Assembly: GCA_963804995.1 (NCBI GenBank)
Contig: CAWDSK010000006.1
Coordinates: forward strand, 864,001 to 928,000
From: an uncultured Acidobacteriota bacterium
Lineage (GTDB): Bacteria; Acidobacteriota; Terriglobia; UBA7540
Direction: 5' to 3'
Length of the DNA stretch: 64,000 nt
Below are positions 8,377-51,587 of this stretch, piece after piece. Under the pieces are notes generated by a model, which saw only the letters and a program-made list of their open reading frames with translations, searched no databases and had not been told where the DNA came from. How positions within the stretch are numbered: position 1 is the first letter of the stretch; each line of letters opens with the position of its first letter. Both the position numbers and the translations under genes were made by a program.

Positions 8377-8790
8377 ATCTCAACCGACGCATAACATACA
8401 CCTGCCTGCCCCTGCATGCAATCGCGCGCCCGCGTCGTGCGGGCGGTTCCGGTATCGACCGCCTCGGCGACGGCTGGAAAAGCCCGTCGTGCTGTTGTCT
8501 GATGACGCTGGGTTGGGAGCTGTGACGAACGTGTCACGGACGATTCCAAACTGCTTAGCGAAGGATGTAGGTTTTCCAGGCAAGCCCTGCACTCGGTCAG
8601 TCCTTTCCCGCCCACCCCAAGGGGTAAGGTCCGTTCATTTGTCACACGATCTCAATGAGAATCACGATGCGACGTGAAAAACTCAAAGCGGCAGGCGCAC
8701 TGTCTTTCTGCGAAGGATGCTGGAGTCCTGCACTACAGGCAGTTTCCCCCCCCAAGGATTTTCGCTCTCTCTAAATCGCCCTTGCGATCC

Positions 8791-9675
8791 TTACTCGGGC
8801 AGGTACTTTAACCAGGCCTCGAGAAAGTTCTTCCCGTGGAAGACCCAGGTTCGCTCATCCAATCGTTCGACTCCGTTGCCGGTCCGCCAGCGGCTGGTTC
8901 CACGTGTAGTGATTTCCACCTTCATGTCCACCGCCCCCGACATCTTGTAGGGCTTCATTTCTCCGAGCCGTTCCATCGCCCGCTGTGCCTTCTCGCGAAT
9001 CAGCTTGCAAGCAGTAGGGTGCGGCAGCATATACCCCGCTGTGCGACCGACGCCGGACTTCACTTCTGCACACTCGGCTTGCGGCGCAGTATCGTGTAGT
9101 TCGCGGCAGGCAGCCGCGTCACCGGAAAGCATTGCGACCGGAATTCCAAACTCTCCCGCCAGCATGTTGGTGGTGCCGATTTCACCCTCCGGCGTACCAT
9201 TCACCCACATGTTCTGGATTCCCAGCGAACTATAGCTGTGGCTCAGAATTCCATCCTTAGCTCCGGCCATGGCGTGCTGGCCAATGAAAACGACAGCGCT
9301 ATAAGATGAATCAAGCCCCATGGTCGGTGGAATGGGGCTGCCTGTAAGCAATCTACATCTCGGATTGATATCAAGCACGGAGAGCGTTTGTGAGCCGTCG
9401 TGCCCGTCGTACACAATGACCTCCGTCGCGCCGCCGGCGAATAACCCATCCACCGCCGCGTTGATTTCGCCGGTCAACAGGTTGCGTGATTCTTCAAATC
9501 GCCTGCTACGGCCTGGCATGCACTGCAAATCACTGTCGAAAATTCCGCTCACGCCTTCCATGTCGGTAACCACGAAGACCTTCTTCGGTAGCGTGGCCTG
9601 CCCAAAACCCGAGCCTACTAATACCGAACTCATCAATAGGCAATATCCGGCGAAGATCCTTTTCTCCTTCGACAT
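8791..9675 (-). CDS. M55 family D-aminopeptidase with signal peptide
   Basis: TDMEG, DGH, GQHAMAG and SHS motifs; GAGGTG RBS before MSKEK. Confidence 0.9.
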   Translation of the reverse strand: MSKEKRIFAGYCLLMSSVLVGSGFGQATLPKKVFVVTDMEGVSGIFDSDLQCMPGRSRRFEESRNLLTGEINAAVDGLFAGGATEVIVYDGHDGSQTLSVLDINPRCRLLTGSPIPPTMGLDSSYSAVVFIGQHAMAGAKDGILSHSYSSLGIQNMWVNGTPEGEIGTTNMLAGEFGIPVAMLSGDAAACRELHDTAPQAECAEVKSGVGRTAGYMLPHPTACKLIREKAQRAMERLGEMKPYKMSGAVDMKVEITTRGTSRWRTGNGVERLDERTWVFHGKNFLEAWLKYLPE

Positions 9676-9911
9676 GGTTTTGTCACCTCGTTTCAGTGGA
9701 ATGTTGACGCGACTCTGGTTTCCCCAAAAATCGTTTGCCCGCCGCCCAGCCGGGGAAGTGTCAGCGCCACTGCTACGGCTCATTGGCCAAATCTTTACTT
9801 CTCGGGCTCACAACGCGCACGTATTAGGCGCCAACGGCAGCACATTGTACATCTGTTTTTTTCTTCCATAGATGCGCTGTTGACCGGTCCCAGTCACTTC
9901 AGACACAATAA

Positions 9912-11186
9912 GTGCGCAAGTGGCGTTTGGCTCCGCCGGTGACCGACACCAGCCGGGACCACTTTCCTCTGAACCAGCAGTCATGGCAGAGACAGATGCC
10001 GCGAAAGGTGTATATGGATTCCGTTGGTGTCATTCTCTATTGCTTTTTCGTCGTATTGTTTCCGGCGGGTGGGGGGGCCCAGAAACCCGGACCTGATCCC
10101 AGCGCGCTGTTCGCAGAGGCCCAGCGAGCCCTCCTCGCGCACGACTACGCCAAGGCAGAGCGGGGCTTCCAAGAGGTCCTGAAAATCAATCCGCGGTCCG
10201 CCGGGGCTTATTCGAATCTGGGCGTGGTTGAGATGCGTCTGGGCAGGTACAACTCCGCCATCCAGGCTTTCCAGGAAGCCAAAAAACTCGAGCCTCAATT
10301 GATAGGGTTCGACCTGAACCTGGGCCTGGCTTATTACCGCAAACAGGACTATGCCAATGCTATTCCCGCATTCGCGCGGGTGCTGCAATCCAACCCTGAG
10401 CACGCACAGGCGCGCTATCTGCTGGGCATGAGTTACTTTATGCAGGACGACTTCGAGCGTGCGGTCGCTACACTTGAGCCGCTTTCGGGCGAAGAGAAGA
10501 ACAATCTTGATTACCTCTTCGTGCTGGGCGTTGCCTATGACAAGGTCAAGCGGCCTGCGGACTCCCAGCAGACCTTTGAGCAGATGATTCGCGCAGGAGG
10601 CGACACCGCTCATCTGCACTTGCTTCTGGGGAAGGCCTACCTGGACAATTCACAGACTTCCAGGGCCGAGACTGAACTGGAGAAAGCAGTGGCACTTGAT
10701 CCCAAGCTGCCCTCCGCTCACTACAATCTGGGTGTGGCCTATCAGCGCGAGGGGAAGTTAGATCAAGCGGCAGCACAATTCAAACAAGAAATGCCGCTCA
10801 CTCCGGATCATCCTTGGAGCTTTGAGAATCTAGGCGCTGTCTATCTCGATCAGGAAAAGCCCGACGAAGCCATCGAGGTGTTTCGCAAAGCGCTCGACAT
10901 TGATCCCAAGCTCCCCTATTCGATCGACGGAATTGGCAAGGCCTATTTGCTGAAGGGCCAGCCGGAGAAAGCCCTACCTTACCTCCAGCGCGCGGTGGGA
11001 CTGATGCCAGACAGTGCCCTGATGCACTTCCAATTAGGTCAGGCCTATCTGAAAACCGGTCAGCGCGAAAAGGGCCAGAAGGAAATCGTCGTGGCAGGAC
11101 AGCTCCAAGAGAAGGCTCGGAAGAAATTCGAGGAGACACTATCGGGGAAGTTACCCGCTCCGGAAGCTCCCGGGGAGGACCGATAG
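9912..11186 (+). CDS. Exported tetratricopeptide-repeat protein (start uncertain)
   Basis: Many TPR units (AYSNLG, AHYNLG, MHFQLG). Confidence 0.88.
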   Translation: MRKWRLAPPVTDTSRDHFPLNQQSWQRQMPRKVYMDSVGVILYCFFVVLFPAGGGAQKPGPDPSALFAEAQRALLAHDYAKAERGFQEVLKINPRSAGAYSNLGVVEMRLGRYNSAIQAFQEAKKLEPQLIGFDLNLGLAYYRKQDYANAIPAFARVLQSNPEHAQARYLLGMSYFMQDDFERAVATLEPLSGEEKNNLDYLFVLGVAYDKVKRPADSQQTFEQMIRAGGDTAHLHLLLGKAYLDNSQTSRAETELEKAVALDPKLPSAHYNLGVAYQREGKLDQAAAQFKQEMPLTPDHPWSFENLGAVYLDQEKPDEAIEVFRKALDIDPKLPYSIDGIGKAYLLKGQPEKALPYLQRAVGLMPDSALMHFQLGQAYLKTGQREKGQKEIVVAGQLQEKARKKFEETLSGKLPAPEAPGEDR

Positions 11187-11295
11187 GCAAGTGCGAAGCC
11201 GGACACAGCGTACAGGGGATTTCGTCAAGTCGAACTTGGTCTTCCTGTGGCCCCTATTGACAACCTGAGAAAGGTCTTTTTAGCAAGCTTACAGG

Positions 11296-13120
11296 TTAGG
11301 GCTTCGCGGTGGAGAGCTTCGCCGCAGTCGGGGCTTTTTCTGCCTTGATGATTCCAGCCCCTTCTTTGATGGTAAGGAACTGGTTGGCTTCGATGTTCGT
11401 GAATTTCTCGGCCCGCTGGGTAGTAGGCCACTTCACCTCAATCAGGTCCGCCTGTGGGGCTCGCCCAAGGCCAAAGTGCAGGCGCAAATCACTTTGCGAC
11501 ATCACGCTGGTTCCGGAGTGCACCTCATCGGTTTGGATGTGTTTTCCGGTTACCACTCGCACGCGCGCTCCGATGGCTGTGCGGTTACAGGTTGCGCCGA
11601 CAAGCTTGAGCTTGATCCAGTTGTTTTTATTGCCGCCGTCGTTGCGGAGCAGTGACGGGTAATCGTTCATATTCAAGACCAGCACGTCGATGTCGCCGTC
11701 GTTGTCATAGTCGCCAAAGGCGCACCCTCGAACTCGCAAAGCGCGAGGCTATTCCCGGCCCCAAGTCCTTGGAGACGTCCTTGAACTTGCCATTCCCGAG
11801 GTTCCTGTACACGATCCGCGGTGAAGTAAATTGGGCGTCCAATTCCAGCTCCGCGAGCTCCGGGTAAATGTGGCCGGTGACATGGAAGATATCCTCCCAA
11901 CCGTCGTTGTCGTAATCCATGAAACCCGCGCCCCAACACACGTACTGCTTGTTCAGGGCCAAGCCGGCCGAGCGGGCCACCTCTGTGAACATCCCGTCCC
12001 CGTTGTTATGATAGAGGTCCACCGTATCGTCTGAAAAGTTCGTTTTGAAGATGTCGAGCCAGCCGTCGCAATCATAGTCCCCCACCCCCAGTCCCATTCC
12101 AGCCTGTTCCTCCCCGTCCTCGCTGTAAGCGCATCCGGCACTTATGGCGATGTCCTCAAACGTCCCGTCGTGCTGGTTATGAAACAAAATGCTGGGCTCG
12201 GAATCCACTGCCACGTAAATATCGGGCCAGCCGTCGTTGTCAAAATCGTAGGAGACGGCGCTGAGGGAGTACCGAGGGCCGGGTTTCAGGATACCTGCCT
12301 TTTCCGAAACATCCGTGAACGTCCCGTCCCCATTGTTGTGGTAAAGGATATTCATCGCGCCGGGCAGGCCTCGCGGCCCGCAAATCACCGGATGCTGACG
12401 ATACTGGCAATAGCCCGTCTCTCCTGGCAAGGGCACTTTGTTCAGGTCCAGCTCGATGTAGTTGCACACGAACAAGTCCAGGAATCCGTCACGGTCGTAG
12501 TTGAGCCACGTGCAGCCGGTGCCCCAGCGGACGCGCTCTTGCCATAGCCCCGACTGCTTCGTTACGTCGGTGAAGGTGCCGTCGCCATTGTTGTGCCAAA
12601 GCACGTTATGACCCCAATAGGTACAGAACAAATCATCCCAGCCGTCGTTGTCATAATCGCTTACGCAGACGCCGGTGCCCCATCCCGTACGAATGAGGCC
12701 GGCCTTCTCGGTTACGTCGGAGAACGTACCATCGCGGTTATTCTTGAAGAGGCGCTGGGTGGGAGTCCTGCCGCCCGGATACGGCTCTTCGCCCGGCAAG
12801 CGGTCACCGTTGGGCAAATAGATGTCAAGCCAGCCGTCCTGGTCATAATCGAAAAAAGCCAAGCCGCTACCTTTGGATTCCACGAGGTACTTCTTGCGTT
12901 TGACACCGCCCCAGACATTCGGCACGTTTAAGCCGGCCTCTTTGGCGACATCCACAAAGGTGACCGGGCACGGGTTGTCGGGATGGGAGACCGTTGCCGC
13001 CAGCGCGGGAATTCCGGTCCATCGCCACAGCGGGGTAGTAAGAACTTCCAGTAGTCTTGACCCCAAGAGGATAGCGGAAGAACCCAGAAAATGGCGACGA
13101 GGCAGTCTCATTGATGTCAA
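11296..13120 (-). CDS. CRTAC1/ASPIC-UnbV FG-GAP protein, frameshift near 11730
   Basis: DYDNDG repeats and an RR leader. The C-terminal UnbV domain (RGCAFGD...LHFGLG) continues in another frame. Confidence 0.88.
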
Positions 13121-13440
13121 TTGTAGGCCCCCGTACTATTCCATAGACAACAACTCTATTTACCTCTCCAAGGGTACGCAAGAGAATAAATCCGGTGAGC
13201 AACGACCTGGACCAGCCATTTCTGGGGACTCTGATCCGGATAGGACCCTTCCCGCCAACTAATCCCTTGTGCGATCTTATGGCTTGATGGCTGCGGTCCT
13301 GCGGGTTTCACTAGGGCGGAATGCATTTATCGAATAGAGCTTGCGGTGCGAAATCGAAAACGGTCGGCAAGAATCGAGGACCCTGAGGTCTCGCCGTCGC
13401 GGCTGGCTCACTGCCGCCGCGGCTCTCCACACTAGACGAT

Positions 13441-13480
13441 GGGGGTACAGGAAGATTCTCGCTGCCTCGCTGTACCCCCG
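13441..13480 (-). terminator. Hairpin downstream of the TonB receptor gene
   Basis: GGGGGTACAG...CTGTACCCCC inverted repeat. Confidence 0.4.
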
Positions 13481-13497
13481 CCCCCAGAACATTCACG

Positions 13498-16400
13498 TCA
13501 GAAGGTAAACTTCATAGCGAACTGTAAAACGCGCGGCGTCCATGCCCCTGACACCTCACCCATGCCATAATTGTTGGCGATGCCGCTGCACGGAGATCCA
13601 AAAGGCGTACTGCCGCCACAGCCAGCGTTAATGTTATTCCACTGTGTGTGATTGAAGGTGTTAAACGTTTCGAAGCGGAATTGTAGCGATGAGTGTTCGC
13701 CTCGCGCCCAAGGCAATTGAAAGTCTTTGAGCAGGGCTAAGTCCCAGTTATTTCGGCCCGGTCCAGTGAGGGCGTTCCGTCCCATATAGCCGAACATCCC
13801 CGGTTCACCGCTGGCGCTGAACTGGGAGAGATTCGGCTGGCCGACACTATTTGGATCATACCACATCTGAGTAGGTCCGAATTGAGGGTCGTTGTAAGTA
13901 GATTTCCTGATCTTGACCGGGGCGAGCGAGTTGCAACGCATTCCTTCACTGATACCGTTGCTCATTCCGTCTACACCGCAGCCGAAGTTCACCGGCTCCC
14001 CGCTGTAGAAAGTCGTAATCCCACTCACCGCCCAGCCACCCAGCGCCGTCTTTACTGTGGCCTTAGAGGCATTCTTGAAGAACGGCAGGTCGTACATGTA
14101 ATTCATCACCAGAGCGTGGGTACGGTTAAAGTCCGACGTGGCAAACCAGCGGTTTAGGTTGGACTCGTCCACATACAAATAGCCGTTTCCGCTCTCGTTG
14201 TCAATCCCGTGAGCATATGTGTAGGCCGCCTCGAAGCTCACGCCATGTCCAAACCTATGGCGCAAGTCCGCTTGCAAAGAGTTGTAATGAGAGGAGGCTG
14301 CATATTCGTAATAGTCGATCTGGCTGTAAGCGCGATACGGAAAAAAGAAGATGTTCGGCTGGATCTGGTTCATCAGGATGGACTGGACATCACAGTTGCC
14401 CGAGACATCGCATCCCGTTGTCCCGGCTAGGGCTGGAACGTTCATAGTTCCTACACCATCAGGTATGCGGGTGAGGTTCGAGGTGCGGCTCAGGTGCCGC
14501 CCCAAAGTCCCAACCCATCCTATGCTCAGAACAGTATCCGATGGAAACTCGTGCTGCACCGTGAGATTGTACTGCTGCGACGACTGCCAAGGTCCGGAGG
14601 ATGGATAGGCGGATACATACACCGGAGCTAGAGGGCCCTGCGCTAAGCTCTCGTAACCGTTAATGTTGTACCCGACAGGTTTAAATGACGTTGGCGGATT
14701 TCCAATTCCCACTTCCGAATTCCCGTAGGAAGACAAGTTGTCATAGAAAATGCCATATCCCCCACGGATAGAGGTCTTGCCACTGCCGGTAGGATCAAGG
14801 GCAAACCCGAGGCGCGGCGTAAACATATTCCGCGGCACGTTCCGGCAACCTACGGGAATCCCTGTCGACCCGCATTGTACCAAGCCGTTCCCGAACATCG
14901 TGTAGTTATATCCGGTACCTTGGACTATGTTTCCGTCGATATCGAGCTGAGCTTGTTTCGCCGGATCGTACAGTGCAGGGAAGAAATCCGCGTCGTTGGT
15001 GGGAATGGAGAAATCGTGTTCGGGTGTCGAAGCGTAGTAACGCAACCCCAGGTTGAGGGTCAACCTGCGGTTAACCTTCCAGTCATCCTGGATATAAGGC
15101 TCGTATTGCTGCTTGCGCTCGCGCGTCCAGCCCCATCCCCCCACCGGGACGCCACCAGAAACGGCGGTGCGCTCCGTGTACGAATAGATCCGGCCCAAAA
15201 ACATATCGGCTAAACCATTCTTCGTCGTGAGAGGTCCTCCGCCCGTAAAGACGTAGTTCCCCATCGGGTCGGCATCCGACCCCGGGCCCGAAGTGTGATA
15301 GATCAAAGCCTGCAACCCAAACTTAAGGGTGTGTCTACCCACCGTCCAGGCCACGTTGTCTCTCAACGTATTCACGGGGAACCACTGGCGATAGTTGGTC
15401 AAATGCACGGCCATGGTAAAATGGAAGGGCGTGCCCCCAGAAACCTTGATTCCAGGCAGATAGGGGATCGCAGCGTTGGGAGCGAAGAAGTTTCCCGCGG
15501 TCCAGTTGGAGGGCTTGGTGATCGATCCTGAGGGAGACGTAGGGCTGACCAAAGGAGTGTAAATCTGATCCGTGCGAGAGTACCCATAGATGAACTCGTT
15601 CATCAGGTTGGGCTTGAAGGTGTGGACCAGGTGCAGCCAAGCCATCGGAGTCGGAATCGACCTGTGCGTCTCTACGGTGTCGTAAGTGTTGGAAGAATAT
15701 AGGGCCGGGGCGACGATCTTGGTCCACGACTTGTGTGAGTACTTGACGAAAAGTCTAGTATTGTCACCGATATTCTGATCCACACGCGCGCTGATTTCCA
15801 GCAAATCCGCCGGCACCTTGATAGAACTCACGTAACTGTCAACGCCGTTATTGGGAAGAGGAACGAACGCATCGAGCATCGGCTTTGCGTTGGGATCGAT
15901 AGGCACAGTGTCCCCTGGGAACGGCTGGCCGGTGGCAGGATTTATGGGTAACCTGCAGCCGGAAGCAACCACGGCGTTGTAATTGGCAGACATTGGGTCG
16001 CATTCACTGAAATCCCCCTGCCGCATCCGCAGACTCGGCACACCGCTGGGGCCAATTTCCTTCCCGTCACGATACTTCGCCCAGTACTGGGAATAGTAGA
16101 AAAAAGTCTTCGACTTATCCGTGTTGTAATGGCCGGGAATATAGACCGGCCCGCCGAGGGTGAAGCCGAAAGTGTTAGCTTGCAAGGGGGCCTTTGGAGC
16201 GTTACAAGGTCCGGCAGGGTTTCCGCCACAGTCTGCTTGCACATTTAAGCTGCTCCAAGGTTCTCGGTTAATAAAAAAATCATTGGCGTTGAGGGCTTGG
16301 TTCTTGACGAATTCGAACGCCGTGCCGTGAAAGTCCTTCGTCCCAGACTTCGTGACGACGTTCAATCTGGGCTGCGCCCCGTGAGCCCAGATCTGCGCCA

Positions 16401-17140
16401 TAGTTGGCGGTGGAGACCCGGAACTCGGCAATGGATTCGATGCTCGGAAACTCCACCAGGGTAACGCCGCCGCTGCTATTATCCTCGGCGCTCTGGCCGT
16501 TGAGATTCCAATTGGTGGAATCCTCCCGCAACCCGTTGAAGGACATGTAAGCTCTGTAGCCGTGGCCGATATGCGAAAGGTCTGCACTATTATCGGGGCT
16601 TGCCCCGGGAACCAGGAAGCTAAGCTGCTGAAATTGGCGCCCGGCTAGGGCCAGGGTGACGATTTGACTTCCTGTCACCACGTCGGAAACGGATCCGCTC
16701 TCCGTTTCCACTTTCGTGACGTTCCCAGCGACGGTGATTTGCTGCGTCACCTGACCGAGCGTGAGCTGCATGTCTAACCGGAGCGTCTGGTCGACTTCAA
16801 GCCTGATCCCTGTGCGCACCAACTTCTGGAAACCCGAAACCTCGGCGCTGACGACGTAGTTGCCGATGGGAACCTTATCGGCCCTATATTCTCCCGCTGA
16901 ATTCGTCACCGTATTGCGAACAAAGCCTCGGTCGGGATTTGAAACCACAATCTTGGCTCCTGGCACGATGGCACCTGTGGAGTCCGTCACTATGCCCACA
17001 ATCGTGGCTTGATCCTGCGCCCAAGCCGCGACCGGCGAGAGCAAAACAAGGGCCAATATGAGCAAGCCCAGCTTCCCGATAACGTCTGTCGGAGATAGAT
17101 ACCCCTCTCTCTTGTCAAACCGTTGAGATTTACGCTCCAT
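13498..17140 (-). CDS. TonB-dependent receptor with N-terminal carboxypeptidase-regulatory-like domain, frameshift near 16365
   Basis: GIVTDSTGAIVPGA N-domain, plug ...EFRVSTANYGAD / NVVTKSGT, YIQDDWKV, terminal aromatic residue (KFTF). Confidence 0.9.
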
Positions 17141-17758
17141 AAATCACTCTCCTTTACTCTTGTGGGTTCTTCTCAGGAGCGACGCTTATAAATTAACTGC
17201 CATGAGTACTGCAAAACTAGTGGAGAAGGCCTTCCATCGAAAACCCCAAATCCCGCGACCGTCAATTCTTCGACCCATTCCTTCCAGACCCGACGACCAA
17301 CACCGTCGCGGCCCATAGAGCGGATGCACAAACATCCTTGTGAACTGGACGGATTCACTCGCTCCTTCCTTGCGTCAACCTTCTTATTCGGTTAAATGGC
17401 GGGGAATTTGGGAAACTGGCAGGCTCCTCCTTTTTCTGAGGATTCCGCGTTCCTGAAATGAACGGCATTTACCACTAAAGGCGCGGTCTGTCAAGACAAA
17501 TCTTGGGATTTTGCAGCCCGTGATAGAACACGTTGAGGGCTCGCAGGTAAGTCTCTGCTTTCGCAGCAAAGGAGCTAAGTCGGATGAGAATGGGAAAGGG
17601 GTCGACCTAAATTCCGGAAGTTGCACGCATGGCGAAAGTCGGCGTGACAACCGCTTCGCGAGTGATCAACGGTTCGGATCTCACTTGTCCCTACCAATAA
17701 TCTCGTTCATCTTGAAATCATTGATCTTCTCAGGAGACGTTGTTAGCCTTGCTCGTCC

Positions 17759-18540
17759 ATGTTTACTCCACTCCTTTGCGCATTGGTTAGCATCCGAGCT
17801 TGGTTTCGAAGTTGAGCAGTGCTGCAAATGGAGAACCTTGCCCTGCGCCACCAACTGATAGTTCTTAAGAGGTCTCAGCGTGGCCGGCTTCGTCTGGACT
17901 CCGCCGACCGATGGCTTTGGATTTGGCTCGCTCGCTTCTGGTCGAACTGGCGCTCGGCGTTGCTCATCGTCAAGCCCGAAACGGTAATCGCCTGGCATCG
18001 CCAGGGATTCCGCTGGTATTGGAGATGGAAGAGTCGGCACGGCGAGCCGGGAAGGCCTACCATCGAGTTGGAGGTTCGGGAGTTGATCCGAAAGATGAGT
18101 CTGGCGAACCCGCTCTGGGGAGCACCCCGTATTCATGGGGAATTGCTCAAGCTCGGAATCCAAGTGTCACAAGCCACAGTCGCGAAGTACATGGCTCGGC
18201 AACGAAGACCGCCATCCCAGACGTGGCGTACTTTCCTTGAGAACCACGTGCAGCAGTTGGTTGCGACGGACTTCTTCGTCGTGCCGACCGTCACTTTTCG
18301 ACTCCTATACGTCTTTATCGTCTTGGCGCACGATAGGAGACGCCTACTCCATTTTAACGTCACCGCCCATCCCACTTCCGAATGGACGGCGCAACAGCTG
18401 GTTGAGGCGTTCCCTTGGGACAGCGCGCCACGCTACCTGCTCCACGATCGCGACTCGATTTATGAAGGGGCATTCCGTCAACGAGTTCGGAGGATGGCGA
18501 TTCAGGAAGTTCTGACGGCCCCCAGATCGCCTTGGCAGAA
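17759..18540 (+). pseudogene. Integrase-core (rve) transposase, 5' part
   Basis: ENLALRHQ, RIHGELLKLG, DFF, HDRD and PRSPWQ motifs; in-frame TGA at 17813; cut at 18540. Confidence 0.88.
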
Positions 18541-18543
18541 GGC

Positions 18544-20637
18544 TTATGCTTCATACTGCACCTCATTGGTATGATTCGAGGGGTCCTCGAAGAATCGCTG
18601 CCTGGCAGCGAGCTTCGTCCCTTGCATCTTGCGCGGCGGATCATCGCCGGGGTGTTCATATAAACACTCGTTTTTCTCGTTGTAGGCTTGAGCTCTTAAC
18701 AGACCATGGTCCCGCCAGACTTTCACCCACCCGGTGGAGATGCCGAGCAGCTTAGCCATCTCTTGCAGGGTCAACAGGCCGGCTCCGCGTAGGCGAGTGT
18801 AACCGCTCTTCAAGGCATAGTTACGCCGTATGCGCGCGACGATGTGAGGGCTGAAGGGCCTGCCTTCGCCCGAGAGCCAGCCGCGTTCATTCAGCAGGCT
18901 AGCGATCTGCCGATCGGTACGTTGATCCAGGAGCCGGTCGATCTCCGCCACCACCTCCGGCTTGGTGGTGCGCTGTTTCCAGGCATTGAGGGGGATGGGC
19001 AAATGCAGGGTCTTTGTAGCTCCCCCCTTGAAGCGGATCTGAAGCGTGATCTCATGGTTGCGGGTCAACGTGACGTCTTCCAATAGAAGGCGGACCATAC
19101 GCTTCCGTTCTCGATGTGGCGTTTTCGCATCGCGCCACAGCCGAGGGAAGTCTGTGGCCAGGGCAAAAATCTGAGCGCGTTCCTCTTCCCGACACAACCC
19201 ACGGTCGACCTGACGTTGACGTTGATACTCTTGCTGAGCCTCTCCCAGAGCACGCAGCTTGTGGTTCCAGTCGGCCTCGAGCGAATCCGCCACGAGCCGG
19301 TTGTCGGGATCGCAACGCAAGTAGCGCCGCTCGGCCAGCTCCGCCTCATACCGGGCGCGCTCAACTTGGGTTTGGCGCAACCGATCCGCTTCTTCCCAAC
19401 GAGACTGAAGTTCTTGCTGCACGCTCAGCGCCACCTCCAGGGCTAACGGAGTGACCACTTCGATCAGCAGTTCCCCGATGGCCTGGTCGATACCCGCTCC
19501 AGGAACCGTCTGGCAGATGGTTTGAGCGTGTTCGATACCGTACCGCTGACACACATAATGGGGGGCCAGGCGTGACCGGTGAACATGATAACGCACGGTC
19601 ATCCGATTCCCACAGCGGCCACAGATCACTAATCCCTGCAGAAGCGCTGGACCTTCCCGCGGAGGGCTTTGACGACGGTCGGGACCCCAAGCTTGCGCGG
19701 ATTCCCGTAACCGCCGCTGATTGCTCTCATATTCTTCCCAGGAGAGGTAACCCGCATGGGCCCCAGGAAGGCAAGTGTCCCACTCCTCGCGAGGCAACCA
19801 CTTCACCGTCACGCCACCCTCCAGCTTCTTGCGCGTCTGACTCCGGCCAAAGACGTAGGCCCCGGCATACCGAGGATTGTGCAAAACGCGCAGGACATGG
19901 CTGTGAACAAGTTCCACCCATACCAACTCTCCTTGGTGGGGCCCCGCCCGCAGGCGGCGGGGAAACAGCAGCCCCTGCTGGCGAAAGGCCTTCACCGTGG
20001 CCAGGGCGGATCCCGTACGACGGAAGGTTTCAAACAAGAGTCGAAGGCCCTGTTGCACCTGCTGGTCCGGATCGAGAACGAGTTGCCCCGAGCCGTTATA
20101 GACCAAGCCGACCGGAGGTGGGATCTCCAACTCACCGCGCCGAGCTTTGCTGAGGATTCCGCCTCGCAACCGGGCTCGCAGCACGTGCAGTTCCGCCTCG
20201 CTCATCGTGCCTTTCAGCCCCAACAGCAGGCGGTCATTAAAGTGCGCCGGGTCGTAGATGCCATCTTCATCCAAAATGAGCGTGTCGGTGAGCGCGCAGA
20301 TCTCCAGCAGTCGATGCCAGTCCGTGGAGTTGCGCGCCAGGCGCGACACCTCGAGACCCAGAACGATCCCTGCTCGCCCCATCCCCACTTCACTCACCAA
20401 CCTTTGAAATCCCTCTCGGTCTACCGCCGAAGCTCCCGACTGGCCTTGATCGTTGTCGATCACGATGATCCGTTCCAAAGGCCAGCCCAGGGCCACGGCC
20501 TGTTGGCGTAACGCGTACTGGCGCTGGGTGCTCTCGGTATTCTCAAAGACCTGCCGAAGCGTGGACTGCCGGATATACAGGTAGGCGTCGCGTTTCAAAT
20601 GGTGGGCTTGAACCTTCTGCGGCATTTCGGTTCTCAT
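18544..20637 (-). CDS. Large serine recombinase (resolvase, recombinase, Zn ribbon, coiled coil)
   Basis: YIRQS catalytic Ser, SRLARN, LHNPRYAG, CGRCG...C...C. Confidence 0.95.
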   Translation of the reverse strand: MRTEMPQKVQAHHLKRDAYLYIRQSTLRQVFENTESTQRQYALRQQAVALGWPLERIIVIDNDQGQSGASAVDREGFQRLVSEVGMGRAGIVLGLEVSRLARNSTDWHRLLEICALTDTLILDEDGIYDPAHFNDRLLLGLKGTMSEAELHVLRARLRGGILSKARRGELEIPPPVGLVYNGSGQLVLDPDQQVQQGLRLLFETFRRTGSALATVKAFRQQGLLFPRRLRAGPHQGELVWVELVHSHVLRVLHNPRYAGAYVFGRSQTRKKLEGGVTVKWLPREEWDTCLPGAHAGYLSWEEYESNQRRLRESAQAWGPDRRQSPPREGPALLQGLVICGRCGNRMTVRYHVHRSRLAPHYVCQRYGIEHAQTICQTVPGAGIDQAIGELLIEVVTPLALEVALSVQQELQSRWEEADRLRQTQVERARYEAELAERRYLRCDPDNRLVADSLEADWNHKLRALGEAQQEYQRQRQVDRGLCREEERAQIFALATDFPRLWRDAKTPHRERKRMVRLLLEDVTLTRNHEITLQIRFKGGATKTLHLPIPLNAWKQRTTKPEVVAEIDRLLDQRTDRQIASLLNERGWLSGEGRPFSPHIVARIRRNYALKSGYTRLRGAGLLTLQEMAKLLGISTGWVKVWRDHGLLRAQAYNEKNECLYEHPGDDPPRKMQGTKLAARQRFFEDPSNHTNEVQYEA

Positions 20638-20939
20638 CCTCTCACCTCCGGCCGACTGTGAAGTACCATGCTCGCCAGAATCGTAACCACTTCCGTGTGC
20701 AGATCGAGAGGAACCCTCTCCTCAGGGCCGGACGGATTCTGGGGTTTCATCGGAATCCCACCCGGCAGGCAGTGGGACCAGGCTTCCATCCAGCCTTTCA
20801 TCCCCTGGCGAATAAACAGCGCCAGGCCCAAGGCTCCGCGCCTGCCGCCTAACTCACCCCGCACTTGTCGCCGGAGTTCCTCATATTGGTTTACGATCCC
20901 CTCCTGGGCCATCAGGGGAGCAACGGGAGGGTCGCTCAA
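20634..20939 (-). CDS. Small hypothetical protein of the recombinase element
   Basis: The TTG start overlaps the upstream stop (TTGA), and its own stop overlaps the recombinase ATG (ATGA). Confidence 0.7.
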   Translation of the reverse strand: MSDPPVAPLMAQEGIVNQYEELRRQVRGELGGRRGALGLALFIRQGMKGWMEAWSHCLPGGIPMKPQNPSGPEERVPLDLHTEVVTILASMVLHSRPEVRG

Positions 20940-21403
20940 CGTCGTTTTTTTTGCTGCTGCCGAAGCCGGCGCTCCAAGCTGCGAGGATGGACCCGTAGAC
21001 GGAAGGCTTTCTTCACCCGGGCCGCCAGTTCCTCGCTCCGCAAGGAGGGTTCGGCAGCTCGGGCCTGCCGGACGAACTCCATTACCTCGGCCGTGAGCTT
21101 GTGGGCGTGCCGAGGTCCCCGTTTCTGGGGAATCAATCCTGCGAGTCCCCTGGCTACGAAGCCCGCCTGGGCGAGGTAGAAGGAGGGTCTGGAGAAACCA
21201 AAAGCCTCCGCCGCTTGGCTCACCGCTTGGTTTTCGACCCTCACTTGGCGCAGCATCTCGTACTTGACCTGCAGCAAGTCCCGGGGATCGAAGAAGTCGC
21301 TGTCCTGGAACAGGGCGTGGGCCACCTCCTGCGGGCGGGGATTCAAGGTACCTTGGGAGCGCAGGATATGGCGCTTGGCATCGTGGCGTGAGGAAGGGGA
21401 CAT
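20936..21403 (-). CDS. Helix-turn-helix protein
   Basis: VSQAAEAFGFSRPSFY HTH; GGAGGAG RBS. Confidence 0.85.
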   Translation of the reverse strand: MSPSSRHDAKRHILRSQGTLNPRPQEVAHALFQDSDFFDPRDLLQVKYEMLRQVRVENQAVSQAAEAFGFSRPSFYLAQAGFVARGLAGLIPQKRGPRHAHKLTAEVMEFVRQARAAEPSLRSEELAARVKKAFRLRVHPRSLERRLRQQQKKRR

Positions 21404-21444
21404 GGGCTCCTCCGGAGCAAATCCGGCAAACGAGTGTAATGTTA

Positions 21445-21473
21445 ATTATATACATTCTCTTGCTCCCTGTCAA
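21445..21473 (-). promoter_or_regulatory. Consensus sigma70 promoter for the HTH-orf-recombinase operon
   Basis: TTGACA-N17-TATAAT, exact consensus. Confidence 0.85.
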
Positions 21474-21623
21474 GCCTTTTCTATCCTCCGACCCGAATTT
21501 GTGTTGCACAATAAGCGGATATTGCACTCACACACCCACCGAAAACTCTGGACTTCGGCTCAAGCTCCGACATAATCCCTTTAACACAAACGGCGTAATT
21601 CCCTTTACAGACCTTCCGGGGCT

Positions 21624-21918
21624 TCAGGACCGTAAACCCTCCACCAAACGCACCAATTCAATCAGGTCCTCAACGCGAAAATACGAGCGGCCTCCCCCTA
21701 TGACCACGAATGGGTCCTCCCCCACGACACTCGTCCACCGCGCCGGTAGCGAGGTCAACTGGCCTCCTTCGTCGTAGAAATACACTCGGTCCTCCCCCCA
21801 GTTCTGGCGGTAGTCCACCCATTCGAATTCACGTTGGAACAGTGGATGGTAAGGGTGAGTTACTCGGAAACGTCGTTTTGAATAGTCTCTATGGTGTGTA
21901 GTTGACAACCTGATCCAA
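21624..21918 (-). CDS. DUF5372 / Y4bD-like protein, 5' end cut by the recombination junction
   Basis: RVTHPYHPL...WGEDRV...SLPARWT motif. The frame runs into the element boundary. Confidence 0.75.
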
Positions 21919-22168
21919 TCCATACGTCGAGCGCCTAGTGGGCTCGATCCGGCGCGAGTGCCTGGACCATGTTGTTGTGTTCAACGAGTCTTCTCTGCGT
22001 GGCCTTCTAAATTCTTATTTCGCGTATTACCTACATTCGCGAACACATCTGGCGTTGGTGAAGGATGCCCCGGAAGCGAGGGTTATCCAAGGGCCGGAAT
22101 TCGGTGCCGTGGCAGAGATCCCCGAAGTTGGAGGACTCCATCACCGTTATGAACGGCGAGCAGCTTGA
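21919..22168 (+). pseudogene. rve transposase, 3' part
   Basis: PYVERLVGSIRRECLDH...GGLHHRYERRAA. Confidence 0.88.
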
Positions 22169-22823
22169 AGTGTCATTCCCCCAAGAGACAGTCTTGAGTT
22201 TCCTTCCGGCGCCAGCAGAGATTGGCGTTGGATGACAGAACCACGGATCGATTCCAGGATCCGTCTCCGCGAGAACGATGGTGAGGATATCGTGCGCTGC
22301 TGCTGGGAGGCACACGGAGCCATCTCGGATTATCTTCCTACTGCGATCGAGTTTTTGGTATGGACAACTTTCCCGATGGCTACATTTTCCGGCTACTTTA
22401 AGGGGCAGAAGGTTTGTGCTGCTTGAGTTGTAAACCTGCTACCTCAAGGCTCTTCAAGATTAGCTCTGAAGCCAGCAACTGAGCCTGATCGCTAGAGCCG
22501 CCGAGCCCAACACTCGTGCCTTCGTTCACGTGACCCAGGCGATCCATCCGCGTCTTCACGTCCACCTCTTTGTGCTGCCCCCAGCGCGTTCCGACTGTGC
22601 GAAACCCCGTTGAGGAACCTACTGGATTGAAAGTTCTAACCAACCGTATGGATCGATTGGCCGCCCGTTGCGCGGTGCGTTTCCGGGTTGTGCTTCCTGC
22701 GTTGTTGAGGCAAACACCGTCCCGCAGGCTATGCTTCCATTATGCTTCCAATAAACGGGCTGAAAAAGCGGAGCAGAACCAAGCTAATATGCTTTGAATC
22801 AATGAGATGGCCTTGGGCGACTA

Positions 22824-22873
22824 CAGCCCTGAAAAGGCTGGCGTCGGCGGTTCAACTCCGTCCCGCGGCACCA
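22824..22873 (+). tRNA. 3' fragment of tRNA-Phe(GAA), att-like
   Basis: CAGCC-CTGAAAA-GGCTG anticodon arm, GGCGG-TTCAACT-CCGTC T arm, CCGCGGC-A-CCA end. No matching 5' acceptor strand or D arm. Confidence 0.85.
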
Positions 22874-23265
22874 ACTATCTTGCGGCCACACCTCCCCTCA
22901 GCAAATCCCAATCACACTCCTCAAGATAGAACGGACGGCTTCTTCGCCAGCATACATTCACACCCCTGACGTAGAAGAACCCCAGACCTCAAACGGCAGA
23001 GGTCCGTGCTGTAGTTGCTGAAGCGCTCGAAGCCGCGTAGCGGCGGCAGAATGTGGCCCATGGCGTGAGAAGGTGTGAAAAAATACCATTTTCACCGCTG
23101 AGACGCTGAGACGCAGAGAAATGAGCTTTTGGTTGCGGCTCCGCCACGCTGCGTCTCTGCCCCTCTGCGGTGAACCTGCCAATTCTTTCGCAAAGGCACG
23201 AGATCTCCACCACAACCTTGCACCCAGGACCGATTTCGGACAATGTGACGCCCATCGCTTACGAT

Positions 23266-23285
23266 TTGGGCTACCGGTAGCCCAA
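23266..23285. repeat. Perfect palindrome, copy 1
   Basis: TTGGGCTACCGGTAGCCCAA; also present at 58626-58645. Confidence 0.9.
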
Positions 23286-23402
23286 GTGTACATCTTTTTT
23301 ATATAATTACACCAACTATAAATGTTAATATAAATGTGAAGTGTCAGGCGCTGAGTGCCAAGTACTAGGTGCTTGGGGCTGAGGGCTGGGGAGAAGCCGT
23401 AA

Positions 23403-23546
23403 GCAGCGAGCGTTTTTTGCGAGTCCCGACAAGTCGGGATGGGCAGCGAGCGCTTTTTGCGAGTCCCGACAAGTCGGGATGGGCAGCGAGCGCTTTTTGC
23501 GAGTCCCGACAAGTCGGGAAAGGCAGCGAGCGGGATTTGCGAGTCC
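23403..23546 (+). repeat. 40-bp tandem repeat (about 3.6 copies) with internal hairpin
   Basis: GCAGCGAGCGCTTTTTGCGAGTCCCGACAAGTCGGGATGG; no spacers. Confidence 0.9.
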
Positions 23547-24436: not shown

Positions 24437-24614
24437 GGCCTGCGTGCGGTTCGCGGAGCAACTCGACAACCTGCAATCACCGGAGAATCTCGCGGCGCTG
24501 GTGGCTCCCCAGGACGAAAAATCGCTGCTCATGCAAAGAATGGAAGATTCCAACCTGCGCCAATTGTGGCGGCTTACGAACGTGCTATTTAAGGTCCGCA
24601 ACGGAGCGCTGACC

Positions 24615-26559
24615 GGTTCTGTCAAAAGTTTTATGAAAGGTAATGAAGGGTCGGGAGGTGGGTAGAGCTGGGGGATTTGCCCCCAGACCCCCAGGATTTA
24701 TCGCTTTGGTGCCAAGATGGGTCTGGACTGGGGGAGCGAGTGGGGCTCGCTCCCGACCGATCTCGGCCCCGGGGTCGGCGCTCAGGTCGCATCCCTGCGG
24801 AGCCCTATCCTCCGCCCCGGCCACCGCGAAGTTTACTCCCACCGGGCTCAGGCCGCCAGGGCGAGAGCGAGGATCTTGTTCCACTGGCCTTGCAAGGTGG
24901 TGAGGGAACTCAACTCCGGCAAGGGGATGGGTACGCGGTAGCCCAGGGCCAGATGGGGGCGAAGGAAGTTGTAGTGGGTGACGAACAGGGTGGTGAGGGC
25001 CACGGCGCCGTTGCGCGTGGCAAAGCCGCAAGCCGGGCGGACGTGGTATTTGTAGGTGCGATTGAGACGTTCGATGAGTTGCTTGAAGGGGCGGAATTCC
25101 TTGGAGACCGCGTCGAGGTTTTCCAGGCCGATGACCTGCCGCAAGGTATGGGGAGGTTGGGAAGCGGTGCGGTGAGCGTTGAGGAAGTGTACGCCGGCCT
25201 GATAAGCGGGGTTGCCGTCGGTGATGAAACGCAGGGCCTGATCTTCGGGCAAGGTGCGCGCGGCCTCGCCCAGGGCCACGGTGGCGGCCAAGGCATCGCG
25301 CTCCGGCGCCACGTGATAGGACGTGATGCGATGCCCTTGGGGATCGAGAAAGAAGAACGTGTATGGGTGCTTCCCCGCGACGCGAATATAAGTCTCGTCG
25401 CCGGTGGCGGTGGCGCTGAGCGGGGCTTTGTAGCGGAGGTTGAAGGCGTGGCAGTAGTAAGCGGCGGCCTGGGCATAGTTGAGAACGGACTGGTAGCTGA
25501 GAGGCACGCCGAAGACTTGCCGCAGGACCTGGGCGGTCTTGCGGGCGGAGAGGGCGAAAGAGATGTGGAAGGCCAACACCAGGCCCAAGACATCGGAAGA
25601 ACGATGCAGACGGGTGAGGTCGACGGTGGGCGGATCGGGAGCGGTGGGGGCCAGTTGGGCGGGTTGAAAGTGGTATTCGCGATACTGGTAACGCAGCTTG
25701 AACTGCGTGCGGCGCAGCTTCTGGAGCAACTTCTCGTTCCAGTGCAGGGCTTGCTGCTTCTGGAGATAGTGAGGACAACGCTCGCCAGGACATTTGTAGA
25801 TGGTGCAATCGGCACGCTGCTTCCAGCGGAAGAGGGAGCTGCCGCAGTAGGGGCACCAGTAAGGAGTTTTCGTCGGGCGATGACGACGAGCGATTTGCGA
25901 CAGCCGGCCACAGACTTTGCAGCGCAGTTGGCGGGCGTGACGGCCATCGTTGAGGTAGAGGAAGTCGCGCGGTGCGCCGCAGTGGGCACAACGACAAGTG
26001 GGAGGCAGGGGGTGGGCGCCAGAACGCTGAATCGGAGCCAACGGTCGGCGGTGCTGGCGCTGGTACTGAGCCAGCAACTGCCGCCAGTTCCAGGTGCGAG
26101 GTGCCGGAGGCGGCTGGGTCAAGGGAGCCAGAGGGTCAACGTAGAAGTCGCGATAGTGTGGATGCTGCTGGCGAAAGTCGTCGCGGGGTTGAGGCTCGGG
26201 CTGGCGCCCGGCGAGAATCTCTTGCAGTTGCTCGACCAGTTCCTGCAAATCCTGGCGGGTAAATTTCCTACAGAGCCAAAGCACCAATCGTGGTATCTTG
26301 CCCATGGCGGTGAGTCTCTCGGGAACCTGGCGGGTTCCCTACAAGGTGGATTGGGAAAGAGAGACTTCACCGCCCTTTTTGTTTGCCGTCAAGCCCCACG
26401 ACGCAGTTACGTCCAGGAACTTAAGCGCGGCAACCCGACCGCACCTCACGCCAACGTCCTAGTCAAGCGCACCCGGAGGGGGGAGAAAGCAGAAAATCCA
26501 GTTTCTCCCAGCAATTCAATGGGTTATCGCCTTAGGGGACAAAAATTCTTGACACAACC
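24615..26559 (-). mobile_element. IS6-like element, copy 1 (1945 bp), 8-bp TSD CGCTGACC
   Basis: IRs GGTTCTGTCAAAAGTTTT and AAAATTCTTGACACAACC; TSD at 24607-24614 and 26560-26567. Confidence 0.9.
24848..26305 (-). CDS. DDE transposase (IS6/IS240-like core) with N-terminal Cys-rich Zn ribbons
   Basis: DETY, ITDG and IERLNRT motifs; several CxxC pairs. Confidence 0.9.
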   Translation of the reverse strand: MGKIPRLVLWLCRKFTRQDLQELVEQLQEILAGRQPEPQPRDDFRQQHPHYRDFYVDPLAPLTQPPPAPRTWNWRQLLAQYQRQHRRPLAPIQRSGAHPLPPTCRCAHCGAPRDFLYLNDGRHARQLRCKVCGRLSQIARRHRPTKTPYWCPYCGSSLFRWKQRADCTIYKCPGERCPHYLQKQQALHWNEKLLQKLRRTQFKLRYQYREYHFQPAQLAPTAPDPPTVDLTRLHRSSDVLGLVLAFHISFALSARKTAQVLRQVFGVPLSYQSVLNYAQAAAYYCHAFNLRYKAPLSATATGDETYIRVAGKHPYTFFFLDPQGHRITSYHVAPERDALAATVALGEAARTLPEDQALRFITDGNPAYQAGVHFLNAHRTASQPPHTLRQVIGLENLDAVSKEFRPFKQLIERLNRTYKYHVRPACGFATRNGAVALTTLFVTHYNFLRPHLALGYRVPIPLPELSSLTTLQGQWNKILALALAA

Positions 26560-27037
26560 CGCTGACCCATAGAGATGTTAAAAATGAAGATCGACCCGGG
26601 GATGTGTATGAAAACAAAGGCGAGGATGACAAAATGTCGTGCAATTTACCAGTGTTTTTCCAAGAAAATGCAGAAATTTCACGATAATTCACACCATTGA
26701 ACAGATTTTTGACAGAAATTACGGGTTGCGCGGTAATTCGGGGCAAAGGCAGATGGCTTTTTTTGAAGACAAAAATGAGCATATCGCGCTACTCGCGGGC
26801 AGGGGCATAAATTCGCGCGAATCCAGAGGGTGCAACCCGGGTTGGATTGTGTTGGCGAAATGGCCTTCCAATGGAAAGGCAAATGCCGGAGGCGGACCGG
26901 CCTGTTCCTGCGGTGGCTGCCGCGTCCCTGACGTAGCACAGGGAAAAAATCCGCGCCTGTCATGGGTTGAATTTCGCAGCCTGGCAGGGCCGACCGAGTA
27001 CTGTGGGGTGGCAGGTCGCCCCAAAGCGGAGCAGCAA

Positions 27038-49570: not shown

Positions 49571-49674
49571 GCGGTAGCACTTGTAGCGCCGACCTTCAGG
49601 TCGGCATGTGCTTCGGGATCGTGGATTTGCTGACTGAGTAAGCGCGCGTGAATACTGCCGAACATATTGTAGCG

Positions 49675-51587
49675 GTTGCGGTAGGGATACCGGTTACCCG
49701 GTACCCCCCGCACGGATCCGTACGTGCGCTGGTTAGCGCATACGGCTCTTATCTCGGATGTGTGGCGGCGAACCGTTGGGATGGCCAAGGATGCACAACG
49801 TGCGGAGCAGGCAACCAGCAGGCCGCAAGCTTCCCCAGTCGGTCCCAGTTGAGGCGGTGGCGTTGACTGCGTTGACGCAGTTGTGTTCGCCACAGTCGGG
49901 TCAACCGTTCCCGAAAGATTCGCAGGCGGTCGAGGTTTCCCGGTACCGCGTGATAGTTGAAGTAGCCTTGCACGACCGACCGGAGCCATTTACCCGTATC
50001 CGCGATGGGATCGTGCCGACGCTGCCGGAGTTGTTGCTTGAGTTCCTGCAACTTCCCCCGCAGGCGCTTGCTGATCGTCTTCCGCTTCACGGTAAATTGC
50101 CCCCTCCGGTTCTTCCCGCTGATATGCGTGAAGCCCAGAAAGTCGAACGTCTCCGGCTTACCTTCTCCTCTCCGTTTCCGGTAAAGTTCGGCAAACGGCC
50201 CGAACTCGATCCGGCGCGTTTTGTCAGGATGCAGTTCCAATCCAAACTTCCCCACCCGCTCCCGGAAATCCTCCAGAAAGCGGTCGGCTTCCGTCTGCGA
50301 TTGGAATCCAAGGACCGTATCGTCGGCATACCGCACCACGACCACGTCTCCCCGGGCGTGCTTCTTGCGCCACGCCTGCACCCACAGGTCAAAGACGTAG
50401 TGCAGATAGATATTCGCCAGCAGGGGCGAGACCACCGCCCCTTGTGGCGTACCCATCTCCGTCTCCGACCATTCGCCTTCCTCCCTCACCCCGGCTTTCA
50501 GCCATTTCTGGATGAGCCGGAGAATCCGGGGGTCGGCGACGCGATGCTGCACGAACTTGAGCATCCATTCGTGGGATATCGAATCGAAAAATCCACGAAT
50601 GTCCGCGTCAAGAACGTAGTTCACGTGCTTCACCGTGAGCGCGTACGAGAGCGCGTCCAGCGCTTGATGCTGGCTGCATCCCGGTCGAAAGCCATACGAG
50701 AAGCCCAGAAAGTCTTCCTCGTAAATCGCCTTGAGGATGGTGACCACGGCCTGTTGGACGATCTTGTCCTCCAGTGCCGCAACCCCCAACGGACGTTGCC
50801 GCCCGTCGCCTTTCGGGATATACGCCCTTCGCGAGGGCTTCGCTCGGAATGCTCCACGGTGGACCCGGCTGTGCAGATCGACGAGTCGACCTTCCAGCCC
50901 GCTTTCATACTCCTGCCACGTCATGCCGTCTACTCCCGGTGCAGCTTTTCGCTTCAAGGCGTAAAAGCTTTCCCGCAGCAGATCGACCGTTAAGTGGTGG
51001 AGCAAGGCCGTGAACTTCATCTCCCTGTGTTCCTTCGCGGCTTTCCGCACACCCGCGAGTCCCTGGGACACGCGTGCCCCGCTCTGTGTCGGGTGCGTGT
51101 TAGGCCAACGGGTGTTCTCCTTGATCAGCGGCCTTCCCTCCTCATTCTCCGCCAACGGCTTCCCGTCTTTGTTCAAATGATTCATCGGTACTGTTCCGCT
51201 GTCCGACTCCTCGAAAGCGTGCAGGCGGGCTGTACGGCCATCGCCTTTTCCCGCCGTCCGGCCACGATCTACGGCGGCCGGCGCCTCCGAGGTCTCCCGG
51301 TTCTCGTGCAGAAAGTGTCTAGGCGTGTCTGGGGTCTACGACTACGCAGGACTGTGCCGGAACTCGCGTTGGCGTCCCGGCCTCATGTTGCCTTCCGTTT
51401 AGTCTGAAAACGTCGGCGTCCTGATTGGACATTTTCGAAGCTCAATACCCAGCCCACCTATTCCCCTGTTTACGCTTCACCGTGCGCCTCACGACGCCCA
51501 GCGCAAAACTCGGGGCCGAGTGGATCGCTGCTCCTTCCTCGTGAGAAATTTTCATTCTCTGCTTTCTGCCGGTTTATCCCGGCGCAC
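49675..51587 (-). mobile_element. Group II intron (IIB-like), 1913 nt
   Basis: 5' GTGCG end, domain V GAGCCGTATGCG...CGTACGGATC, domain VI ending CCCTACCGCAAC. Confidence 0.92.
49749..51185 (-). CDS. ltrA: Group II intron reverse transcriptase/maturase, no endonuclease domain
   Basis: APGVDG, RPLG, GTPQG, YADD and FDFLGF motifs. Confidence 0.95.
   Translation of the reverse strand: MNHLNKDGKPLAENEEGRPLIKENTRWPNTHPTQSGARVSQGLAGVRKAAKEHREMKFTALLHHLTVDLLRESFYALKRKAAPGVDGMTWQEYESGLEGRLVDLHSRVHRGAFRAKPSRRAYIPKGDGRQRPLGVAALEDKIVQQAVVTILKAIYEEDFLGFSYGFRPGCSQHQALDALSYALTVKHVNYVLDADIRGFFDSISHEWMLKFVQHRVADPRILRLIQKWLKAGVREEGEWSETEMGTPQGAVVSPLLANIYLHYVFDLWVQAWRKKHARGDVVVVRYADDTVLGFQSQTEADRFLEDFRERVGKFGLELHPDKTRRIEFGPFAELYRKRRGEGKPETFDFLGFTHISGKNRRGQFTVKRKTISKRLRGKLQELKQQLRQRRHDPIADTGKWLRSVVQGYFNYHAVPGNLDRLRIFRERLTRLWRTQLRQRSQRHRLNWDRLGKLAACWLPAPHVVHPWPSQRFAATHPR

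Follow-up and report, generated by a model that had tools for sequence, protein, structure and literature searches.

A compact large-serine-recombinase element in an uncultured acidobacterium with a preference for one codon near the putative catalytic glutamate of insertion-sequence transposase genes

Within a stretch of 64,000 nucleotides from an uncultured member of the Acidobacteriota (Terriglobia; UBA7540; GenBank assembly GCA_963804995.1, contig CAWDSK010000006.1, positions 864,001 to 928,000 of the forward strand), hereafter referred to as the window, an element encoding a large serine recombinase (LSR) was found to interrupt the transposase gene of an insertion sequence (IS). The insertion point lies four codons before the putative catalytic glutamate (Glu-4 codon), and a site preference of this element for the Glu-4 codon is regarded as practically certain. 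A compact, multi-targeting transposon that is moved by its LSR is proposed; for the full mechanism as outlined below, a probability of about 75% is estimated.

The element is bounded by the dinucleotide AA at positions 18539-18540 and 21917-21918. These cores are separated by 3,378 bp, which corresponds to the length of the element if one AA is counted. In silico removal of the element yields an open rve transposase gene of 323 codons reading PWQ^NPYVER at the joint, and this reading is restored only by the three offsets within the shared AA. An intact copy of the host IS, located elsewhere on the same contig (C6:298504-299806), aligns to 17686-18540 (97.7%) and to 21917-22366 (94.7%), and the two alignments share exactly 2 bp, namely the AA. 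The first-pass annotation of the window had described an LSR element with a 2-bp AA crossover and reconstructable attachment sites attP and attB; both junctions proved exact, and the alignments to the intact host IS support this description. Moreover, contigs from public peat metagenomes begin at 18539, stop at 21918 or carry different flanks there, which confirms the element ends independently of the assembly, unless one of the sequencing runs was the source of the assembly. The attL site (18515-18565, plus strand) consists of host arm, core and element arm, and attR (21890-21945, plus strand) of element arm, core and host arm; both were delimited by junction alignments and their outer limits are approximate. 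With fixed ends, the element is oriented antisense to the target transposase, and the core reads AA on the transposase strand. A recount of the symmetry of attP about the AA gave the 12 of 21 positions reported previously, a value of at least 12/21 being reached at only 177 of 63,938 window positions (0.28%); attB of the window is symmetric at 7/21 positions. Among homologous elements, symmetry ranged from 7 to 14 of 21 for 45 distinct attP sites vs. 2 to 10 of 21 for 48 attB sites. An identical 2-bp core at both junctions without target duplication and an imperfect inverted symmetry of attP, both of which characterize serine integrases, were thus observed.

The interrupted host IS (17686-22366, plus strand) measures approximately 1.3 kb when empty and possesses TGT...ACA ends with imperfect inverted repeats; clear target duplications were not found at the host-IS copies. 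Its rve/DDE transposase is divided into a 5' part (17819-18540, plus strand; residues 1-240, including D151 and D210) and a 3' part (21917-22168, plus strand; residues 241-323, including E245). D151, D210 and E245 form a candidate triad with D(35)E spacing, and E245 is a candidate catalytic residue as judged from this spacing and from known DDE enzymes. The crossover falls on N241, four codons ahead of E245. Accordingly, the PWQNPYVER motif does lie at the crossover as annotated, but the Glu is located within the motif and does not follow it. As a separate observation, nested remnants of the same host-IS group are present at C6:862705-863867, where a short non-autonomous derivative has inserted beside the 3' part of the host IS of the window, 22 bp past the crossover position.

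In order to evaluate where related elements reside, the 80 best homologous loci were inspected. A callable end was lacking in 17 of them; among the remaining 63 loci, 53 offered at least 30 nt on both sides, representing 48 distinct full sites. An N/K-x-x-x-E reading was obtained for 46 of the 48 distinct downstream half-sites, which belong to IS3, IS481, IS21, ISNCY and rve genes. Sorting by motif assigned both halves of 40/48 full sites concordantly (IS3 21, rve 7, ISNCY 6, IS21 4, IS481 2); the other eight comprise three with an ISNCY left and an IS3 right half, four with one side unassigned and one (locus L038) in a non-transposase gene. Furthermore, 39 of the 45 halves submitted to NCBIfam, a subset of those obtained, matched IS-transposase models, with most scores short of the cut-off for entire proteins, as half sequences would be expected to give, and N-terminal halves end where C-terminal halves begin, at adjacent profile positions. 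In the complete genome G040, all 11 copies (eight of one variant, three of another) occupy the Glu-4 codon of IS3 (5), ISNCY (4) or IS21 (2) genes, and identical copies were found in both IS3 and ISNCY. Metagenomes were searched with a pattern in which two host bases were fixed. This search returned 107 loci, two of which were too short while the rest collapse to 85 distinct host halves; a terminal PQA/PQT-type motif is present in 77 of these (loosely in two or three cases), and the other eight are two IS256 N-termini, one half more resembling them and five unassigned halves. A minority of sites therefore lies elsewhere, in IS256 N-termini and in non-transposase DNA: at L174, L212, L197 and L155, known from the N-terminal half alone, insertion recurs approximately 32 codons after the start of IS256-family transposase genes, a position remote from the catalytic Glu. 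The expectation that homologues recur at the same rve codon was borne out by 46/48 half-sites, by 4/4 copies in the genome under study and by 11/11 copies in G040, and homologues were not scattered over unrelated sites.

Sister elements of 2,721 bp (L123 and L125 in genome G018, also L124 and L101) encode an LSR of approximately 42% identity, and no separate helix-turn-helix (HTH) gene was seen in them. Their insertion point is the Phe codon of DADLKxY^FD within reverse-transcriptase genes of group II introns, and here, too, joining of the ends creates a DUF5372-like gene.

The genome containing the window (G000) harbors four copies of the element that differ at seven alignment columns altogether. 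The copies interrupt four different transposases, in each case at the same Asn codon. Pairwise identity of these transposases is 48-83%, and attB of the window matches the other three attB sites at only 21-29 of 48 positions, from which it follows that the target is not a single IS. One copy (C6:764621-768001) carries a 1-bp insertion that truncates the LSR to 123 amino acids. In this small sample, all four copies were found at AA sites and none at the six listed relatives lacking AA. The first-pass annotation had proposed parasitism of one multicopy IS. Parasitism of IS was upheld, and an intact host-IS copy of 97% identity is indeed present in the genome; the notion of one multicopy IS as the sole target of a site-specific element is scarcely credible, since the other three copies reside in transposases only 49-62% identical to that of the window and homologues use at least five IS groups. 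Near-identical copies in transposases of about 50% identity, together with those in IS3 and ISNCY of G040, refute this part of the proposal.

Alternatively, the element could spread mostly as cargo of its host IS, with IS ends intact, the transposase supplied in trans and few independent insertions. Identical elements in identical IS3 copies, matching out to the IS ends (L052, L053, L054, L058), and an identical element within identical host-IS copies of G040 (L113, L114) fit this explanation, and either repeated insertion or hitchhiking with the IS may have produced them. However, (near-)identical elements in unrelated IS families of one genome, as found in G000 and G040, require independent insertions. 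Hitchhiking may add copies but cannot account for the shared codon, and it is considered a very improbable principal mode of spread.

An additional, distant LSR element (35% identical) with a broken frame and a DUF5372-like open reading frame (ORF) upstream was noticed in G000 at C1:125101-123146 (L107, L130).

The 3,378 bp contain four ORFs only, and a mobilization or conjugation module is absent. The LSR (18544-20637, minus strand; 697 amino acids) was identified by profile and structure matches. It matches PF00239, PF07508 and PF13408, all above cut-offs, and comprises a Resolvase domain (residues 18-169), a Recombinase domain (198-312), a zinc ribbon (332-389), a coiled coil (approximately 397-479) and a C-terminal helical/HTH extension. 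Catalytic residues Y21, R23 and S25 (Y-x-R-x-S) and the zinc cysteines C339, C342, C363 and C375 are invariant in 18 sequences. A conserved small ORF of about 100 codons (20634-20939, minus strand) overlaps the HTH stop and the LSR start; it belongs to no known family and had no usable Atlas match. The HTH protein of 155 amino acids (20936-21403, minus strand; HTH_32/HTH_29) is a probable regulator. A sigma-70 promoter matching the consensus at 12/12 positions (21445-21473, minus strand) points into the HTH, small-ORF and LSR genes, and a match of at least 10/12 was present in 36 of 46 distinct homologous intergenic regions. The body of the DUF5372 (PF17342) gene (21624-21916, minus strand) encodes an SH3-like barrel plus helix, a predicted LSR-binding directionality factor. 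Its ribosome-binding site (18564-18559) and ATG (18554-18552) overlap the last LSR codons and are stranded at the far end of the element (18552-18564, minus strand). The order DUF5372, promoter, HTH, small ORF and LSR recurs in the majority of the 80 best homologous loci, whose carriers belong to Acidobacteriota, Pseudomonadota, Chloroflexota, Actinomycetota and others. Moreover, a homologue at E 1e-100 or better was found in 194 plasmid records.

In the integrated element, parts of the DUF5372 gene lie at attL and at attR; the gene is complete only in attP of the circular form, where it follows the LSR gene in one operon. In 59 of the 63 loci, joining the ends fuses the DUF5372 body in frame to its start codon, preceded by the ribosome-binding site, and creates an ORF of more than 80 codons; this recurrent ORF across the joint suggests that a circle forms. 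An in-frame ATG is fortuitously provided by the host flank of the window copy, and some expression from the integrated copy is possible. In structure prediction, DUF5372 folds into an SH3-like barrel followed by a C-terminal helix (mean predicted local distance difference test, pLDDT, of 78). A fold search retrieved generic SH3/KOW-like matches only (best Z 5.3; root-mean-square deviation of about 2 over 45-50 residues), from which no function follows, and comparison with viral models gave nothing at E 0.001 or better. Modeling of DUF5372 together with the LSR resulted in an interaction prediction score from aligned errors (ipSAE) of 0.73 in three runs vs. 0.00 for the best of three controls, with a contact agreement of at least 77% and a partner pLDDT of at least 75. 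The ipSAE mark applied is attained in 116/157 solved complexes and in 2/215 mismatched pairs, counts that are rough where custom alignments are used. The modeled interface on the LSR covers residues 338-343, 394-413, 480-518 and 533-541, which correspond to the zinc domain and the coiled-coil base. Known recombination directionality factors (RDFs) are predicted to bind at the zinc-domain/coiled-coil junction, as stated in the available part of a preprint (10.1101/2024.06.11.598349), and the model supports binding of DUF5372 at the RDF site. Since the gene is built by the joined ends and its product is modeled at this site, the directionality factor would be made mainly from the circle. Two roles of DUF5372, promotion of re-integration and excision of other copies in the manner of a classic excision factor, are given about even odds. 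Separately, a contig of run X1 skipping exactly 3,378 bp at the AA was considered as an excision product and dismissed, since an empty host-IS relative explains it.

Conservation of attB outside the core is highest at G +11 and A +12 (45/47 each), followed by G +2 (41/47). GA at +11/+12 belongs to the codon of the catalytic Glu, and the core to the N/K codon of rve-type DDE transposases. The targets encode homologous proteins, and contacts of the enzyme can therefore not be deduced from attB conservation alone. Two exceptional loci are informative in this respect. L038, where the insertion lies in an opposite-strand gene that does not encode a transposase, retains the core as well as GAG at positions +11 to +13; L066 has a CG core at both ends and an Arg codon at the same Glu-4 position, as assigned by eye. 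Both loci point to reading at the DNA level by the LSR.

A probable trace of exchange between copies is an element-free IS at C1:68554-67278 of G000, which encodes an open transposase of 357 amino acids. Over the first 847 bp, this IS matches one on contig C5 with 82% identity, the match stopping at the AA; over the last 433 bp, from the AA to the IS end, it shows 100% identity to the sequence that flanks the element copy at C6:764623 on the right. Among the 119 best database relatives, 115 have a comparable C-terminal part; they are 76-90% identical before the AA and 16-37% identical after it, and the C-terminal motif of the chimera occurs in none of the 119. When 29 genomes of the genus were compared, only G000 contained a match that extends across the joint, most other matches ending within a few bases of it. 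In the simplest reading, the chimera arose by recombination between elements residing in two IS, followed by exact excision, and the element-free gene is likely an excision footprint. The chimera is a single event, read from the assembly, and its reciprocal product is absent. Mismatched flanks around an occupied site were additionally found in the complete genome G040 (L112).

According to the proposed mechanism, the LSR would make staggered cuts of 2 bp in attP of the circle and in attB and exchange the strands by rotation, as expected from the chemistry of serine recombinases. Site comparisons show attB to be relaxed, its best-conserved letters being the core and the GA at +11/+12. Insertion severs the transposase ahead of its Glu, and exact excision restores it. 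The LSR would read DNA and not protein, and selection may thin insertions outside IS genes further. The joined ends complete the DUF5372 gene behind that of the LSR, with the product predicted to sit at the zinc-ribbon/coiled-coil junction. Finally, copies in different IS may recombine and then excise, leaving hybrid transposases.

Several observations weigh against this mechanism. TT/TT cores (element strand) were found in 63/63 loci with both ends callable, a value biased towards TT because the end matrices were built from TT-core cases. The DUF5372-LSR complex is a model derived from custom alignments, and several hybrid flanks originate from draft metagenome-assembled genomes and may represent assembly joins. 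Moreover, the attP circle junction was absent from 107 metagenomic right ends, four genomes and the contigs of four runs, in which no go-back joint appeared; a degenerate attP-junction pattern was used, none of the 107 metagenomic stretches continued into the left end of the element, and assemblies lose rare forms. Regarding target choice, a weight matrix including the target family of G000 placed the four true sites 1st-21st, whereas a matrix built without it ranked them 166th-704th of 827,212 AA sites. A simple additive motif is thus insufficient alone to explain the site preference, and the gap must be filled by selection against insertions in useful genes, by clade-specific preferences or by an extra factor. 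Likewise, the arm motif conserved in attP has no mirrored counterpart among the conserved letters of attB.

The latter two results speak for an alternative in which an extra targeting component, such as the HTH protein, the C-terminal extension of the LSR, the target transposase bound in cis or an element RNA, steers the LSR to IS genes while attB DNA sets the register only. The leave-family-out matrix scores hundreds of non-target sites better than the true ones, the four-gene layout is kept across phyla, and RNA directs ISEc21 to the codon of the second Asp in IS3 transposases, as far as the available text indicates (PMC11187229). Against such a component, L038 keeps the DNA motif without a nearby transposase. 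An RNA guide was rejected as a candidate: the longest match between intergenic regions and their own attB averaged 6.57 nt vs. 6.53 nt after shuffling (n = 37), i.e., without excess, and no Rfam match was obtained within 17000-23500. Steering by an extra component is rated as unlikely, and direct reading of attB by the LSR remains the favored explanation. A more far-reaching version of the mechanism, in which serine-recombinase hyperparasites form a widespread class homing to active-site codons in the enzymes of other mobile elements, DUF5372, produced from the circle alone, switches the enzyme from excision to integration, transposases are shuffled site-specifically by exchange of their Glu-bearing C-terminal parts between families when copies in different IS recombine, and sister clades live on group II intron reverse transcriptases, is put forward tentatively and is considered rather doubtful.

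Among known systems, the clostridial transposons Tn4451/Tn4453 (TnpX) and Tn5397 (TndX) are excised and integrated by an LSR, feature 2-bp identical cores and show low site specificity; in the portion of the review available, the Tn4451/Tn5397 recombinase is stated to need no RDF, and the transposons carry mobilization and resistance genes (PMC5704250). The element described here resembles them in using several target sites and in being present in several copies per genome. It differs in having just three small ORFs beside the LSR gene, in being found almost solely at a single transposase codon and in encoding a predicted LSR-binding factor whose gene becomes complete upon circularization. The Cp36 clade (DUF4368) of Durrant et al. 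2023 combines one LSR cluster with many target-gene clusters and a conserved TT core, DUF4368 being present in 63% of the multi-targeting clade (accessible sections of PMC10083194). The present element fits their multi-targeting definition as given there. In contrast, DUF4368 was not matched here at E 0.01 (Pfam), and targets are homologous catalytic motifs and not the AT-rich sites reported in those sections. Supplementary file 3 of that study, in the part available, does hold this LSR family as cluster11023 (53 proteins, target genes 'NA'), recognized by three shared motifs; its att sites look like a tRNA 3' end, unlike the ends determined here. Transposase activity is not enriched among the targets in the data available from the same study (6/1069 vs. 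2/908, p 0.20).

The closest ecological parallel, judging from the text available, is ISEc21, a seekRNA-guided DEDD member of the IS110 family that inserts at catalytic DDE codons in transposase genes of other elements (the second Asp in some IS3 members) and circularizes with its ends joined; for the related ISEc11, the same portion of text reports no re-joined target (PMC11187229). The present element, by contrast, encodes a serine recombinase and not the DEDD transposase that, together with a guide RNA, characterizes IS110/IS1111; it occupies the Glu-4 codon in at least five IS groups, and no intergenic segment matching the target was found. Phage LSR-RDF pairs (SPbeta SprA, phiC31, Bxb1, A118) share the domain order, fold matches and a partner predicted at the zinc-domain/coiled-coil junction, whereas the element is not a phage and the gene of its predicted factor is split across attL/attR and whole in attP only. 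Sinorhizobium fredii pNGR234a (NC_000914.2:33989-37258) contains a cluster of 3,320 bp with the same gene order, an LSR of 55% identity and the same codon of an ISNCY transposase as target; the record annotates four separate coding sequences, and its gene table gives no att sites or target. This four-gene cluster presumably corresponds to y4bA-D. Tn6048, also considered as a match, was discarded as an unrelated 10.4-kb transposon according to the available text (PMC11952213, PMC4914505). No description of the element was found in the literature searched, beyond which lie ISfinder, TnCentral, most subscription journals and bioRxiv supplements; DUF5372, PF17342, y4bD and y4pK had no whole-word occurrence in it, and the available part of one bioRxiv preprint (10.64898/2026.01.13.699239) held nothing on this family. 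The element-free chimera joined at the AA, DUF5372 modeled at the RDF site and the Durrant family entry with differing att sites are regarded as new.

Further features of the window include two IS6-like DDE element copies with a cysteine-rich N-terminus (24600-26620 and 59068-61079), which are 98-100% identical to copies on four other contigs, and a 1.95-kb repeat (49668-51612) with more than 35 near-identical genomic copies. A tRNA-like remnant ending in CCA (22810-22873), not called by ARAGORN, lies within a 507-bp stretch that is repeated at C6:842842, and a 40-bp tandem repeat (3.6 copies, 94% matches) occupies 23403-23546. In addition, an 8.6-kb segment (8670-17235) is 96% identical to C1:36073-44635 and holds a TonB-dependent-receptor-like gene whose frame is broken near 16280-16590.

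The findings provide a defined LSR/attP/attB set with a candidate directionality factor for a family that is listed in a published LSR database with apparently wrong att sites. The dozens of natural attB sites per clade represent a system for studying how an LSR reads a relaxed, asymmetric target. Regarding the lifestyle of the element, a safe-harbor strategy is suggested, in which the near-invariant catalytic codons of many IS would serve as a neutral and abundant landing site while the host IS is reversibly switched off. Moreover, the hybrid transposase suggests that exchange at one fixed codon may be a route to new IS variants.

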